In this document: piece by piece, positions 20,538-24,804 of the stretch
Numbering within the stretch: the stretch's first letter is position 1
How the letters are laid out: each line of letters begins with the position of its first letter
Sequence record: NC_007023.1
Strand: one strand, 5' to 3'
Source of the DNA: Escherichia phage RB43
Length of the DNA: 64,000 nucleotides
Made by a program: the position numbers and the translations under genes
Notes under the pieces: generated by a model
Told to the model about the DNA's origin: nothing
What the model saw: only the letters and a program-made list of their open reading frames with translations
Databases searched by the model: none

Positions 20538-21860
20538 ATGAGTGATAAACACTACACAATTCACAAGTTGATGCGTCAGTCTACGCTTCCGTCTGGTAAA
20601 CGCGAAAAGGTTATCAACGAAGCAACAGGCACGACAGATATCAACGTACAGAACACGCGCCCAGAACTGGTTTCTTTAACTCGCGCCGTGAACAACCTGA
20701 TCTATCATGAACTGGTTGCAGTACAAGAAACTGATTTACCAGTAGCAACGCTTTTTGGTGTTCGTTATCGTAACCCTAACGGCGATATGACTTTCTCCAG
20801 CGCTGCAACCTATTCAGGCCGAATTTCAGGGCGTACAGGCATCGATGATATCGATCTGGCTAAAGCATACGTTAAGGGTGATTTATTCAAGCACGATGTC
20901 ACTGACGTTGTTTATGAGGTTATCGCACCGATTACGCTAAACACCCTGGATACTGACAAAGACACCGCACTGATGAAAGGTGTTTTCCAAAGTAAAATTC
21001 GTCTGGTGAGTGAAGCCGCTGATACATCGAAATACGAAACAAGCGAAGATATCGCATCAACTTCGTTCCAGATGGATCGCTGGAATATTCCGGTACGCTC
21101 TCGTAAGTTTAAAACCGAAATGACGGTTGAACTTATACAGGATCTGGAAGCAAACCAGTTTGAAGCAGATGGGGTTATCGAGGATATTCTGGGTACTGTT
21201 GCCAGTGAAGAAGTTAACAAAGATATCATCCAGACTCTGATCACCGTATCTAAGCGTTATAACGTTAACGGTGTTGTGACTGACGGTATTTTTGATGCTA
21301 CCACGTCTTACACTGCTGCTGATGCTCCGGCATTAGGCCGTATGCTGTATCAATTAGCGTGTGAAATGGGGCAGGAAATGAATAAAACCACTTCATTTGA
21401 TGCTACCTACGTCCTTTGCTCTGCTCGCGTCACAGGCATTCTGGCTGCGTCTGGTTGGATGACCGAAACTGACGAACAACACCCGCTGGCAACTGGTAAG
21501 CTACAGAACGGTTATTATGTCTATACAGACACGAACACCCCGTTTGATTATCTGCTGACAGGCTGTAAGTACGATCTGGGTGATATGGACCATGTTGGTT
21601 CTCTGTTCTTCACTCCGTACACCGAAGCCGACGAAGCAGGTTCAATCAAGGTATCCGTAGATCCGGCATCACTGCAACCGAAAGTAGCAATTCTGATGCG
21701 TTACGGTTTGTCTGTGAACCCGTATACAACTGAAACCGATTCTGATCGCCTGATCAAAGGTGACGATTGGTCTAACCTCGCAGGTAAATCTAAATTGAGT
21801 CAGATCGTAGGTGTTAAATTACCTACCTGGGTTAATCATGTTTTGAGAAGACCATTATAG
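20538..21860 (+). CDS. 24: capsid vertex protein gp24
   Basis: 440 aa gp23 paralogue following gene 23, as in T4. Confidence 0.9.
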   Translation: MSDKHYTIHKLMRQSTLPSGKREKVINEATGTTDINVQNTRPELVSLTRAVNNLIYHELVAVQETDLPVATLFGVRYRNPNGDMTFSSAATYSGRISGRTGIDDIDLAKAYVKGDLFKHDVTDVVYEVIAPITLNTLDTDKDTALMKGVFQSKIRLVSEAADTSKYETSEDIASTSFQMDRWNIPVRSRKFKTEMTVELIQDLEANQFEADGVIEDILGTVASEEVNKDIIQTLITVSKRYNVNGVVTDGIFDATTSYTAADAPALGRMLYQLACEMGQEMNKTTSFDATYVLCSARVTGILAASGWMTETDEQHPLATGKLQNGYYVYTDTNTPFDYLLTGCKYDLGDMDHVGSLFFTPYTEADEAGSIKVSVDPASLQPKVAILMRYGLSVNPYTTETDSDRLIKGDDWSNLAGKSKLSQIVGVKLPTWVNHVLRRPL

Positions 21861-21879
21861 TAATAAAGATCAACAAGGT

Positions 21880-22051
21880 CAAATGAGCGAAGCGAATTTT
21901 CACGAACGAAGTGAGTGATAGGAACTACATAATTATATTTTAATATTTTATATATAGAGAAAAATGTAGTTTTTGGTATGGTTTTTAACCAGATGTAAAC
22001 TAACATTCACTCACTACGTTCGTTCATGTACTCGCTTCGCTCGTAAATTTG
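21880..22051. repeat. large imperfect inverted repeat (about 40-bp arms) enclosing a nested 8-bp inverted repeat and an AT-rich core
   Basis: Left arm CAAATGAGCGAAGCGAATTTTCACGAACGAAGTGAGTGA (21880-21918) pairs with reverse complement of right arm (22007-22051); inner AACTACAT/ATGTAGTT at 21923-21971. Confidence 0.7.
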
Positions 22052-22076
22052 ACTTCTTGATCATAGTGGTTATAAT
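22049..22076 (+). promoter_or_regulatory. sigma70-like promoter upstream of uvsY
   Basis: TTGACT, 16-nt spacer, TATAAT; about 24 nt upstream of uvsY ATG; -35 overlaps the right arm of the inverted repeat. Confidence 0.55.
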
Positions 22077-22099
22077 GATTCTTTGTTTTGAGGTGATAC

Positions 22100-22522
22100 A
22101 TGACTGAACTAAAACTTGAAGATTTACAGGCTGAACTCGAACAGGATATGTTGATTGATCCTCTGAAACTACAGAGTGAATCAGCAGACATTCCGAAGAT
22201 TTGGTCAAAATGGCTTCGATATCATTCGAATGCTAAGAAAAAACTGATCCAGCTACAGGCCAGGAAAGAAGCAGATGTTAAAGAACGTCTTCTGTATTAC
22301 ACTGGACGGCATGAGACTGAAATGACTGATGTCATTTACACAGGTTCAGGTGAAATTAAGATTGCGATCAATGGTGATCCGAAAATTGTTGAGGTTAACA
22401 AGCTGATCCAGTATTTCGAATTGATTGCAGAATTCACCAGCAAAGCGCTGGACATTGTTAAGAACAAAGGATATTCTATCAAAAATATGTTGGAAATCCG
22501 AAAACTTGAGAGTGGTGCATAA
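22100..22522 (+). CDS. uvsY: recombination mediator UvsY
   Basis: 140 aa; LEDLQAELEQD..IDPLKLQSE......SKWL..HS..KK.L..L.A.KE...K.RL.YY.GR matches T4 UvsY. Confidence 0.85.
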   Translation: MTELKLEDLQAELEQDMLIDPLKLQSESADIPKIWSKWLRYHSNAKKKLIQLQARKEADVKERLLYYTGRHETEMTDVIYTGSGEIKIAINGDPKIVEVNKLIQYFELIAEFTSKALDIVKNKGYSIKNMLEIRKLESGA

Positions 22523-22523
22523 A

Positions 22524-22715
22524 ATGTCAAATCAATTTGAAAGCCAGCACGACGCTAAATGCGTGGTGTGCAAACGTCCAATGGTAACAGCTACTGGGTT
22601 TGTTACCGAATCCGGTCCCGTTTGTGGTCCTATCTGTGCTCAGTATCTGATTGAGCGTGATAAATCTGGACTGAACGAAGCCGACGATCTGAACGAAGTT
22701 CAAATGTTGCTGTAG
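22524..22715 (+). CDS. small hypothetical protein with CxxC...CxxxC zinc-ribbon-like motif
   Basis: ATG immediately after uvsY stop; 63 aa; Cys pairs CVVCKRP...CGPIC. Confidence 0.5.
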   Translation: MSNQFESQHDAKCVVCKRPMVTATGFVTESGPVCGPICAQYLIERDKSGLNEADDLNEVQMLL

Positions 22716-23032
22716 GTGGGAATATGAACACGGAAGATGTTGACTTTTTCGACGAAAGGCCGGATCTGATTGATTCCGGTTGTTTCGAAGATGAACACCC
22801 AGATTTTTAATCAGTAAATAGATGTGTACCCCTTGTTGGGCTTGGGCTTGCCGTATGGCGTACCCATTTGCGCCGTCCGATAGAATTTACTTTCGGCGGG
22901 GTGATTGGTAAAATACCTTCGAGTAAAGGCCAGTGAATAGTAATTCGGAATAGTACCGCACCGAAATAAATAAATGTACTTCCTCGCGGTTCTGTTATGC
23001 CGCTGTTTATATGACTGCGGTTATATAAAATT

Positions 23033-23066
23033 AAAGCCCCTTCCTTTCGGTTGGGGCTTCTTTTTT
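23033..23066. terminator. bidirectional hairpin terminator between convergent transcripts
   Basis: AGCCCC...GGGGCT stem with T-run downstream on plus strand and A-run upstream; overlaps uvsW.1 stop. Confidence 0.6.
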
Positions 23067-23295
23067 AGAACTTCTCTTCTTCTCCGGTTTCAAGTTCGGC
23101 TTTGAGTTCTTCACGCCGTCCCTTGATCGCGTCACGCATTGAAATGTCATCGGATGCTGCAACTTCAACTTCCTTGACCCGCGTATTGTAATACTTTTCC
23201 AACTCTTTCAAACCGTCCAATGTACGGCACGAAGCAACTTTATTCATGAAATCATCAATTGCGGCTTCGTTAACGAATTCAGTAAAACTTTTCAT
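23065..23295 (-). CDS. uvsW.1: UvsW.1 (small protein encoded downstream of uvsW)
   Basis: 76 aa minus-strand ORF right after uvsW; good RBS AAGAGG; same size as T4 UvsW.1. Confidence 0.7.
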   Translation of the reverse strand: MKSFTEFVNEAAIDDFMNKVASCRTLDGLKELEKYYNTRVKEVEVAASDDISMRDAIKGRREELKAELETGEEEKF

Positions 23296-23304
23296 CTTAA
23301 CCTC

Positions 23305-24804
23305 TTAAATTTCTACCTGTTTGATCACGTAGTCGAATCGTTCTTCATTGTAGATCCGCACACGTTCCATAGCATGTTTCATGCCGTAGTTAGTTGCACT
23401 ATATTTATTTTTGGCTGTCTTCGACTTCGCCAGCGTTGCCAGGTTATCGACGATATCCCATACAGTAGCCAGCGCTTTCGAACCATGCTTACGCAACACG
23501 CGCCCGATCGACTGCTTAACAACAACGGCAGATTTGCAAGGGTGTGCAAAAATGATGTGATGCAGGTTCTTGATTGAAATACCTGTACTCAGTACCCCGA
23601 TCGAACCGATTACAATCAAACCCTTTGTTGATTCCGCAATCTTTTTCATTTCGTTGCGGTCGTCAATGTCCGTATCGCCGTTGATCAACACAACGTTGTC
23701 ATAAACCTTGCTCAACTTCTCGTACAGCCATTTTCCGTGTTCTTTATACCGGAACATCACGAATGTGTTTTCGTTCTTCTCACGGGCTAATTTAAGCGCT
23801 AATTTTAGAATCCATGCGTTGCGCCGTGTATGGCTTGTAACGTACTTGATTTCTGTCTGGTAGTCCGCACCTTTTAACTTCTTAACCTCTTCTTCTTTGT
23901 ATCGAAGAAAGATTGTGTTAATTTTCAGGTTGGTGACTTGTCCATCATCCATCAAACGACGCGTATCAACTGGTTTAAAGACTTTACCGAACGCACCGAT
24001 GTATTGCATCATGTTCGTTTTCCCTTCTTTCAGGGAACCGGATAACCCCAGTTTGAAAATGCACTGATCCATTGTGTCGATAATCTTTTTGATGCTCAAC
24101 CCTGTTGAGAGGTGGCATTCATCAACCATCAGGCACATGAACTGCTGGAACCACTCAGCAGGCATTTTAACCGCTGATTGCCAGGTTGAAACATAGATTA
24201 GCGCGTTGCTGTTCTTAGCAGTACCGGAACGAATACCCAGCATTGCCGATTTCGGAAACAGTCGATAGTTTGCGATGTCCTCGATCATTTGGTCAACCAG
24301 CGCCGTAGTTGGAACGATAATCAGCACTTTACCGCTGTAATGTTCCAGACACCAACGGGAGATAAGACCCTGAATCAGTGATTTACCCGCTGACGTTGGC
24401 AGGTTCAGAACACCTCGACGGTTTTTGATACCGTGGAATACGGATTCGCGTTGATACCAGTAAGGATCGATCTTTTTGTCGCCGTCATAAACTGGATGCT
24501 CGTTTACCCACTTGTCAAAATCTTCTTGCGTGATATCCTCTGTCTCGTGGATCTTCGGATCTACCCAGATTGAATACCCGCGCGATTCTGCGAATTTTGC
24601 TACCAGATAGGCTAATCCATACGGGAGTTTTCCGTTGTAGTCCATCAGGTAAATGTACCCGTTCCATCCACCATATTTGTACTTGTTTTGGTACTGATAG
24701 CCTGGAGGCTGGAATGAAAAATAGTCACGCAGTTCATAGACAATGTTTGCTTCTGCCTGAATCTGTACGTGGCTTGTGTTTAAATATTTGACTTCAATAT
24801 CCAC
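23305..24804 (-). CDS. uvsW: UvsW RNA-DNA and DNA helicase (apparent GTG start)
   Basis: 499 aa; LNLPTSAGKSLIQ, KVLIIVPTTAL, DECH, GSLKEGK.N.MQY, IGRVLRKHGSK.ATVWD match T4 UvsW; first codon is GTG. Confidence 0.9.
   Translation of the reverse strand: MDIEVKYLNTSHVQIQAEANIVYELRDYFSFQPPGYQYQNKYKYGGWNGYIYLMDYNGKLPYGLAYLVAKFAESRGYSIWVDPKIHETEDITQEDFDKWVNEHPVYDGDKKIDPYWYQRESVFHGIKNRRGVLNLPTSAGKSLIQGLISRWCLEHYSGKVLIIVPTTALVDQMIEDIANYRLFPKSAMLGIRSGTAKNSNALIYVSTWQSAVKMPAEWFQQFMCLMVDECHLSTGLSIKKIIDTMDQCIFKLGLSGSLKEGKTNMMQYIGAFGKVFKPVDTRRLMDDGQVTNLKINTIFLRYKEEEVKKLKGADYQTEIKYVTSHTRRNAWILKLALKLAREKNENTFVMFRYKEHGKWLYEKLSKVYDNVVLINGDTDIDDRNEMKKIAESTKGLIVIGSIGVLSTGISIKNLHHIIFAHPCKSAVVVKQSIGRVLRKHGSKALATVWDIVDNLATLAKSKTAKNKYSATNYGMKHAMERVRIYNEERFDYVIKQVEI

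Follow-up and report, generated by a model that had tools for sequence, protein, structure and literature searches.

Replication origins have been experimentally defined among the T4-type phages only for T4 itself, and the best understood of these are MotA-dependent. In the T4 annotation, oriF lies at the 5' end of uvsY and is primed by the uvsY transcript, and oriE lies inside late gene 5 and is primed by an antisense early transcript. T4 oriF and oriG each consist of a MotA-dependent middle promoter and a downstream AT-rich unwinding element (PMC3016281). Escherichia phage RB43, a Pseudotevenvirus, has neither MotA nor middle promoters (PMC1524935), so origin promoters of the T4 type are unavailable to it. 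Here we describe a discrete DNA module of ~165 bp at bp 21881-22045 of a 64,000-nucleotide stretch of RB43 DNA (from sequence record NC_007023.1; hereafter the window), located between gene 24 and uvsY. The window is 99.9% identical to the RB43-GVA isolate (HE981739).

The module shares with T4 oriF its location at the uvsY promoter, its AT-richness and its place at the edge of a late-gene block. Just as a T4 genome contains several origins, RB43 carries two copies of the module. It differs from oriF, which lacks conserved hairpins, in having four mini-hairpins with GNA loops and in having its AT-rich region between two outward-facing sigma-70-type promoters; there is no sequence similarity between the two.

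DNA mini-hairpins of the GCGNAGC type are extraordinarily stable and are poorly bound by single-stranded DNA (ssDNA)-binding protein. The motif occurs at the priming origins of phages G4, St-1 and alpha3, in the hairpin promoters of phage N4 and in the single-strand initiation (ssi) signal ssiA of plasmid RSF1010, which includes a CCGAAGG mini-hairpin (PMC13037366). The G4, St-1 and alpha3 sites share with the module the C-G closed GNA triloop core, in which the free N corresponds to the variable position of the module. However, these are single sites in ssDNA phages that are primed by the host DnaG, whereas the module has four copies of the core, supplemented by tandem G.A and flanking pairs, and is carried by a double-stranded DNA (dsDNA) myovirus and by integrative islands. 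Signals of the ssi type are modular, and in RSF1010 ssiA and ssiB reportedly lie on opposite strands, with synthesis departing both ways. RSF1010 oriV resembles the module in having hairpin signals on opposite strands of one element and in using short hairpins as part of a duplex origin. It differs in having one ~40-nt hairpin per strand (the module has two), RepC iterons and the primase RepB', and its sequence similarity to the module is limited to the C-GAA-G core; no direct-repeat iterons were seen in a repeat search of the gene 24-uvsY spacer. We take the ssi pair of RSF1010 oriV to be the nearest architectural analogue of the module and T4 oriF to be the nearest positional analogue.

HUH nick sites classically consist of a covarying stem that presents an invariant loop, and single-strand origins (sso) are structured, exchangeable cassettes. 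The rolling-circle origins of HUH Rep proteins resemble the module in that its island copies lie beside an HUH Rep gene and its central hairpin looks like a nick-site hairpin, but they differ in that the phages lack such a Rep and that the module is two-fold symmetric, while an sso has a single orientation. The promoter early stem-loops (PeSLs), which are small promoter-plus-terminator cassettes abundant in the hyperplastic regions of RB49-type phages, likewise place a stem-loop immediately before a strong sigma-70-like early promoter of a T4-type phage, and their copies recombine with one another. In contrast to these, the RB43 module is a composite of 165 bp, is present in two copies at the borders of late-gene blocks and has no terminator features. 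RB43 is not mentioned in the PeSL survey paper, and we found no description of the element in the literature on RB43 or Pseudotevenvirus origins, RB43 PeSLs or Gp2/YfjJ function. Each part is of a known kind (mini-hairpin DNA, origin signals of the ssi type, an origin located at uvsY), but their combination appears to be new: four selected, mirror-symmetric GNA hairpins around a covarying hairpin with an invariant loop, twice per genome of a dsDNA myovirus and common to islands encoding an HUH Rep.

Structure of the module

The original prediction for this locus, made from the letters of the window alone, was of a large nested inverted repeat with two ~40-bp arms, an inner 8-bp repeat and an AT-rich core. 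Each of these parts is present. The arm blocks given by a repeat search, 21885-21895/22032-22042 and 21902-21918/22007-22023, are complementary at 11/11 and 16/17 positions, respectively. The inner repeat, read directly from the sequence, consists of AACTACAT (21923-21930) and ATGTAGTT (21964-21971), one base to the left of the coordinate first implied, and encloses a 33-nt core of ~20% G+C. When the 239-nt spacer was folded as RNA, a free energy of -70.8 kcal/mol (z = -6.2) was obtained; the 171-nt strand folded as DNA gave -34.9 kcal/mol (z = -7.95, 0/200 shuffles). Based on these scores, the inverted repeat is beyond chance. Three features had not been recognized previously: an outer arm pair with a mirror-image promoter, repetition inside each arm and a second copy of the element.

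Each arm is made up of two copies of a short self-complementary unit, NN-GA-RC-GNA-GY-GA-N'N', giving four units in total. The unit has a GNA triloop, a C-G closing pair, one R:Y pair, a tandem G.A/A.G and then Watson-Crick pairs. From left to right the RB43 units are GAGCGAAGCGA, GAACGAAGTGA, GAACGTAGTGA and GAGCGAAGCGA, of which the first two read on the top strand and the last two on the bottom strand, such that each strand has two mini-hairpins 5' of the central AT-rich region. Specifically, reading, alignment and covariation define a left-outer mini-hairpin (AAAT-GA-GC-GAA-GC-GA-ATTT, bp 21881-21899, plus strand), a left-inner mini-hairpin (CAC-GA-AC-GAA-GT-GA-GTG, bp 21901-21917, plus strand) and, in bottom-strand reading, a right-inner mini-hairpin (TGAAC-GA-AC-GTA-GT-GA-GTGA, bp 22007-22026, minus strand) and a right-outer mini-hairpin (TAC-GA-GC-GAA-GC-GA-GTA, bp 22029-22045, minus strand). 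Only the two G:C-type units read literally GCGAAGC. The 13-nt pattern yGArCGNAGr'GAy' matches four times in the 64-kb window and all four matches are in the module; for a relaxed 11-nt unit, 0.38 matches are expected in shuffled sequence.

Between the arms, alignment identifies a central hairpin (bp 21923-21971) with a covarying stem formed by the inner repeat. Its 33-nt AT-rich loop contains ATATATAGAG (21950-21959), which is invariant in 35 aligned homologues. To the right of the stem, the spacer block TTTTTAACCA (21982-21991) is invariant in the homologues found at the same locus (copy 1) and looser in the second phage copy (copy 2) and in the islands. The centre of the module is the lowest-G+C 60 bp in a 3-kb profile (0.20 G+C; stretch 21910-21999), and its right-outer unit ends 4 bp from the -35 box of the uvsY promoter. 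Two variants were observed among the homologues: in L165:158-356 the right-outer hairpin is duplicated in tandem, and in L159:1926-2082 (copy 1 of a metagenome phage) there is a 13-nt deletion in the AT-rich loop, with ATATATAGAG still present.

A coding role was considered and rejected. Indels of 3-14 nt break the small open reading frames (ORFs) at 21836-22006 (minus strand) and 21973-22107 (plus strand), which are therefore not conserved; indels among relatives are not multiples of three, and the arms are not coding sequence there. A search of Rfam over 21000-23500 returned nothing relevant, the best overlapping match being a plant miRNA model (22 bits against a gathering score of 140). The loop contains no exact TATAAATA late promoter and no DnaA-box match, an intrinsic terminator scan of 21850-22100 was empty and the T-run that follows the central stem is not conserved among homologues.

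Selection on local pairing

To determine which pairing is maintained, an alignment of 35 distinct cores was used (15 from copy 1, 9 from copy 2 and 11 from islands). In the four local mini-hairpins, 98.2% of cells are paired and compensatory changes are found at five pairs (24 cells), with a covariation score of 0.153 as compared to 0.075 in shuffled alignments. The central stem is paired in 95.3% of cells (71.8% when shuffled), shows compensatory changes at six of its eight pairs and has a score of 0.503 as compared to 0.135. Neither score was reached by any of 500 shuffles. In contrast, arm-to-arm pairing occurs in 89.9% of cells, which equals the shuffle mean (89.9%), with a single compensatory cell and a score of 0.064 that is the same in shuffled alignments and was reached by 196 of the 500.

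The sequence of the loops and stems varies in a manner consistent with this. C[GNA]G is invariant at three of the sites and, at the right-outer one, is found in 34/35 sequences; the copies of Yersinia phage JC221, Pantoea phage Phynn and L238 have it as well. Per-site tables show that the triloop N can be A, T, C or G and that the ±3 pair can be G:C, A:T or C:G. The G.A tandem has turned Watson-Crick both by change of the 5' side (TC..GA in L151 and L206) and by change of the 3' side (GA..TC in JC221). Flanking pairs differ by context with complementarity kept: the left-outer flank has AAAT/ATTT in copy 1, CC/GG in islands and GT/AC in copy 2, and within copy 1 a T:A pair of RB43 is C:G in RB16. 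Where only one side has changed, the result is a G.T pair on the strand that reads GNA.

In copy 1 of JC221, the left-outer (TTCGC-GAA-GCGAA) and right-outer (ATGACC-GAA-GGTCAT) hairpins are not complementary to each other, yet each folds on itself. Similarly, copy 2 of Phynn and of L238 has lost arm complementarity while retaining the local hairpins. Because arm-to-arm covariation is absent and local folding is kept in JC221, the two 40-bp arms are, on comparative grounds, a by-product of four similar local hairpins in a mirror layout, and the single large hairpin of the original prediction is not upheld. We initially scored the swapped right arm of RB16 and Lw1 as two independent double substitutions, but this was dropped as the Lw1 copies share that stretch; the right-inner lead-in of Lw1 is common to its own copy 2, so conversion between copies is likely there.

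Copies in related phages

Copy 1 is present at the same junction in all 61 matching database records, which include phages of Enterobacter, Cronobacter, Citrobacter, Klebsiella, Escherichia and Buttiauxella. It is also found in L009 and L010, the most distant metagenomic relatives recovered with a uvsY-based scan. In KP15-like phages, the module is not located upstream of uvsY.

No further copy is found within the 64-kb window, but copy 2 lies ~35 kb upstream of copy 1 in RB43, beyond the window. Its coordinates are ~103,247-103,428 in RB43-GVA HE981739 (L219:1841-2022), where copy 1 is at ~138.0 kb, and L218:4338-4511 in RB16. Copy 2 occupies a divergent spacer between gene 3 and phrog_7322, an early-type ORF whose insertion separates late gene 3 from late gene 2. 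The TATAAATA late promoter of gene 3, a minus-strand gene, adjoins the left arm of copy 2, which is flanked by one late and one early-type promoter. The phrog_7322 product is 202-261 aa in length and has no Pfam domain, and homologues were found only in related phages (including JC221 and Phynn); neither Pfam nor PHROGs suggests a function. Copy 2 is carried by all 61 of the records with copy 1 and by JC221 (62 matching records), such that each phage genome has two copies, both at fixed loci. The original prediction had allowed that the element might be the remnant of an excised mobile element, but this is rejected, as both loci are filled in all 61-62 matching records and show compensatory evolution.

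Copy 2 and the island context described below came to light in a metagenome pattern scan and in previously retrieved loci. The AT-rich core alone (ATTTTATATATAGAG) was discarded as a pattern for scanning viral contigs because it was unspecific (at least 117 loci, mostly unrelated). A combined-pattern scan of genome contigs gave mostly chance matches; the real ones were an Enterobacter quasiroggenkampii island and two copies in one phage-sized contig. Contig NZ_JBHSCL010000010.1 (178,077 bp; L210 and L217) of a 'Flagellimonas marina' assembly holds both phage copies, matches a Pseudotevenvirus genome in size and is probably phage contamination, and a 'Neobacillus sp.' scaffold (L213) that holds an island-type module is probably mis-binned.

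Copies in genomic islands

The same ~165 bp is found in integrative islands of Enterobacter, Citrobacter and E. coli. Here, the module lies ~200 bp downstream of a gene for a 240-aa protein annotated as "inovirus-type Gp2 / YagK-YfjJ", which contains the HUH Rep motifs FLTRFDL, HYHCWIAL and YLAKE (L150:9912-10634, L158:12690-13412, L187:11282-12004 and L188:6258-6980). In E. coli CX12, the island splits malX and terminates with a large serine recombinase. A circular 10.8-kb record, pTR_1_35 (MT833377), carries the recombinase, Rep and the module. Further islands adjoin yeiP and have defence-type cargo; among the island genes are integrases, an OLD-family/UvrD pair, an nSTAND NTPase, a resolvase and cation-efflux genes. 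No consensus promoters are found alongside the island copies. In some of these (L224:3640-3660; also L150 and L171), a fifth unit of left-inner type, ACACGAACGTAGTGAGTGT, is present in direct orientation ~45 bp to the right of the module, and the region as a whole is flanked by a larger imperfect inverted repeat.

Rep homologues with at least 78% identity are accompanied by the module, whereas for those with 73%, 56% and 52% identity no module was found in the 480 bp downstream of the gene, indicating that it is not a universal partner of the Rep family. A tblastn search of 50,697 phage records identified no homologue of the island Rep, and the island ORFs adjacent to the module show no similarity to phrog_7322.

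Homology among copy 1, copy 2 and the islands extends exactly from the left-outer to the right-outer hairpin, and the flanks are unrelated. The arms are locus-specific, and those of the islands group with copy 2 (88-93% identical). In the centre, copy 1 and copy 2 of one genome are 78-89% identical, while copy 1 of RB43 and copy 1 of a phage with another stem variant are only 57% identical. Three stem variants (AACTACAT, GATGTACTG and ATGTCTA) are each common to phages and islands. The homogenized centres within genomes and the common stem variants point to repeated recombination, both between copies and between phages and islands. It is in this restricted sense, an exchange of centres between the two phage copies and with island copies, that the recombination target suggested in the original prediction can be retained.

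A putative replication signal that may act as single-stranded DNA

All four hairpins are retained in both phage copies. The known transcription units would yield the GNA sense for only one arm per copy, the relevant read-through being late transcription that leaves gene 24 at copy 1 and gene 2 at copy 2. Given the mirror symmetry, the strand on which G.T pairs arise, the GNA sense expected from one arm only and the presence of the module in islands without these transcription units, we argue that the module probably acts as folded ssDNA on both strands and not as RNA.

Among the roles raised in the original prediction, an origin-like site is the best fit. We tentatively infer from the analogies above, at somewhat less than even confidence, that the element is a portable, two-fold-symmetric replication origin or single-strand-initiation module. 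In this model, the AT-rich centre would be opened up by divergent early transcription, possibly with R-loops as at T4 oriF. The exposed GNA hairpins would then fold, the left ones on the top strand and the right ones on the bottom strand, and could thereby keep the bubble open and exclude ssDNA-binding protein. The folded hairpins may mark the entry site of a helicase, primase or loader, with forks departing both ways. A module that works as folded single strands would be portable, and such portability would explain both its presence at two phage loci and its position beside an HUH Rep gene in islands.

Several observations are in favor of an origin. The unit of homology is the module itself and nothing beyond it. 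Copy 1 adjoins the uvsY promoter, which is the position of T4 oriF, and a leftward promoter that reads into gene 24 is reminiscent of the antisense early transcript of T4 oriE. Finally, the island module is near an HUH Rep gene and a circular form of an island has been recorded.

Other observations weigh against this interpretation. Many of the 35 aligned sequences are linked by recombination, and because of this kinship there are fewer independent compensatory events than the cell counts suggest. Standard nearest-neighbour DNA parameters, in a model without terms for GNA loops or sheared G.A pairs, give ~0 kcal/mol for the isolated mini-hairpins, and the arm-to-arm hairpin is thermodynamically dominant in RB43 when the whole strand is single-stranded. 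The two promoters point away from the AT-rich centre, while T4 oriF and oriG have their unwinding element downstream of the promoter; in RB43, the AT-rich stretch is upstream of both promoters and G+C downstream of the uvsY promoter is 0.30-0.38. No module-specific initiator, primase or loader was identified, although no search was aimed at homologues of RepB' or RepC, and phrog_7322, the ORF beside copy 2, has no domain recognisable in Pfam or PHROGs. As the more distant Rep homologues show no module in the 480 bp downstream, the link to Rep is not in itself proof of an origin role.

The module is a conserved, structurally explicit and directly testable origin candidate in RB43-type phages, and it would represent a natural case of the GNA mini-hairpin under clear evolutionary selection in a dsDNA genome. 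A more elaborate scenario, which we consider improbable though worth stating, is that the module is a cis-acting replication signal of MotA-less T4-type phages (Pseudotevenvirus, JC221 and Phynn) that has been captured by enterobacterial islands and re-copied by recombination, for use in amplification and transduction or in sabotage of the phage. If true, islands and T4-like phage would form a satellite-helper pair that relies on origin mimicry, in which the recognised structure is the folded GNA mini-hairpin.

Alternative explanations

The alternative that survives best centres on conflict or dependence between phages and islands, and we regard it as unlikely. Either the islands are Pseudotevenvirus satellites that have captured the module so that the phage replicates, recombines or packages them, or the island HUH Rep nicks the invariant loop, in which case the module would serve as the origin of Rep, with the phage copies as targets or decoys. 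The close identity of island arms to copy-2 arms and the three shared stem variants are consistent with this, as are the integrases, HUH Rep and defence cargo of the islands and the resemblance of the central hairpin to the HUH nick-site layout outlined above. Furthermore, there is a precedent in a lytic jumbo phage that transduces islands with genes for Gp2-like proteins as its satellites (bioRxiv 10.1101/2024.08.29.610337). However, Rep homologues were absent from the phage records and those below ~75% identity lack the module in the 480 bp searched. The explanation also accounts for the islands but not for any benefit to the phages, which universally retain the module at two loci. It is compatible with, and not opposed to, the origin proposed here. 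The sharing of the module with islands that carry defence genes and an HUH Rep, and its repeated exchange with them, points to an interaction, so far unrecognised, of virulent T4-like phages with islands in Enterobacter, Citrobacter, Klebsiella and E. coli, which bears on gene transfer and on phage therapy with these phages.

There is little to recommend a selfish or neutral palindromic cassette, either a PeSL-like substrate or one similar to a miniature inverted-repeat transposable element, that is kept uniform by gene conversion. The module does occur in three contexts, its centre evolves in concert within a genome and, as in PeSLs, an early promoter adjoins it. Nevertheless, two copies at fixed loci are present in all 61-62 matching records and in JC221 and Phynn, with neither presence/absence polymorphism nor target-site duplications seen. 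Moreover, five separate helices show compensatory changes, a sign of purifying selection on structure.

It is also very doubtful that the module is a double-stranded operator, an option in the original prediction, in which the four 11-13-bp units would bind a phage or host regulator of both divergent promoters. The symmetric arrangement of the units between two promoters and the proximity of the right-outer unit to the -35 box would suit an operator. However, bases change while within-strand complementarity is kept, even between units of one element, whereas an operator would be expected to retain base identity. Since GA is opposite GA, the unit is not a true duplex palindrome, and island copies have no adjacent consensus promoters.

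Finally, the late gene 23/24 transcript might contain a single large RNA hairpin in its 3' untranslated region, serving as a terminator, RNase III site or mRNA stabiliser. Such a hairpin would fit the strong RNA fold of the spacer and the position directly 3' of gene 24, where late read-through is expected, but it has very low probability given that arm-to-arm covariation is nil, that the arms are non-complementary in copy 2, islands, JC221 and Phynn while local hairpins persist, that there is no U-run and the terminator scan was empty and that copy 2 is not in a 3' untranslated region on that strand.

Flanking promoters and genes

In RB43 copy 1, the module is flanked by two outward-firing promoters identified by promoter scan and comparison with relatives. 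The uvsY promoter, TTGACT-16-TATAAT, is present as predicted at 22049-22076 (plus strand) and is of the sigma-70 (early) type. The leftward sigma-70-type promoter, TTGACC-17-TATAAT (21854-21882, minus strand), is antisense into gene 24. This mirror-image, minus-strand promoter is carried by an outer 25-nt arm pair (21853-77/22053-77) found in the repeat search. Among relatives, the hexamers of both promoters are conserved and their spacers are variable. In the distant relatives L009 and L010, the leftward promoter is TTGATT-17-TACAAT and a TTGATT box is found on both sides; in JC221, TTGATC-16-TATAATGGTTTTC is found on both sides, with a leftward TATAAT box. A GATC (Dam site) lies within the spacer of each outward promoter (window 21871-21874 and 22062-22065) and is kept in every lineage examined, including L009 and JC221, while the surrounding spacer letters vary. 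Just beyond each promoter, at 21839-21847 and 22084-22092, is a copy of TGTTTTGAG, which is a direct and not an inverted repeat; the right copy belongs to the uvsY ribosome-binding region and the left copy has no obvious role.

Gene 24, encoding the capsid vertex protein, was identified as an ORF and by comparison with relatives and is read in the window at 20538-21860 (plus strand). As compared to RB43-GVA and all relatives, one C is missing from the window at ~21826 (CCTACCCTGG -> CCTACCTGG). This alters the final gene 24 codons, extending the ORF from 432 to 440 aa and moving the stop from 21833-21835 to 21858-21860; the alternatives are an error in the sequencing of the original RB43 record and a true frameshift. 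The first gene to the right of the module is uvsY (22100-22522, plus strand), which encodes a recombination mediator and was identified as an ORF and by homology. It is followed by small ORFs and then by uvsW.1 (23065-23295, minus strand; Pfam UvsW-1) and uvsW (23305-24804, minus strand), such that transcription changes strand within ~1 kb of the module, a feature that has also been noted at the origins of T4. In L009 (2390-2500) and L010 (2395-2500), an additional small Cys-rich (zinc-ribbon-like) ORF is located between the rightward promoter and uvsY.

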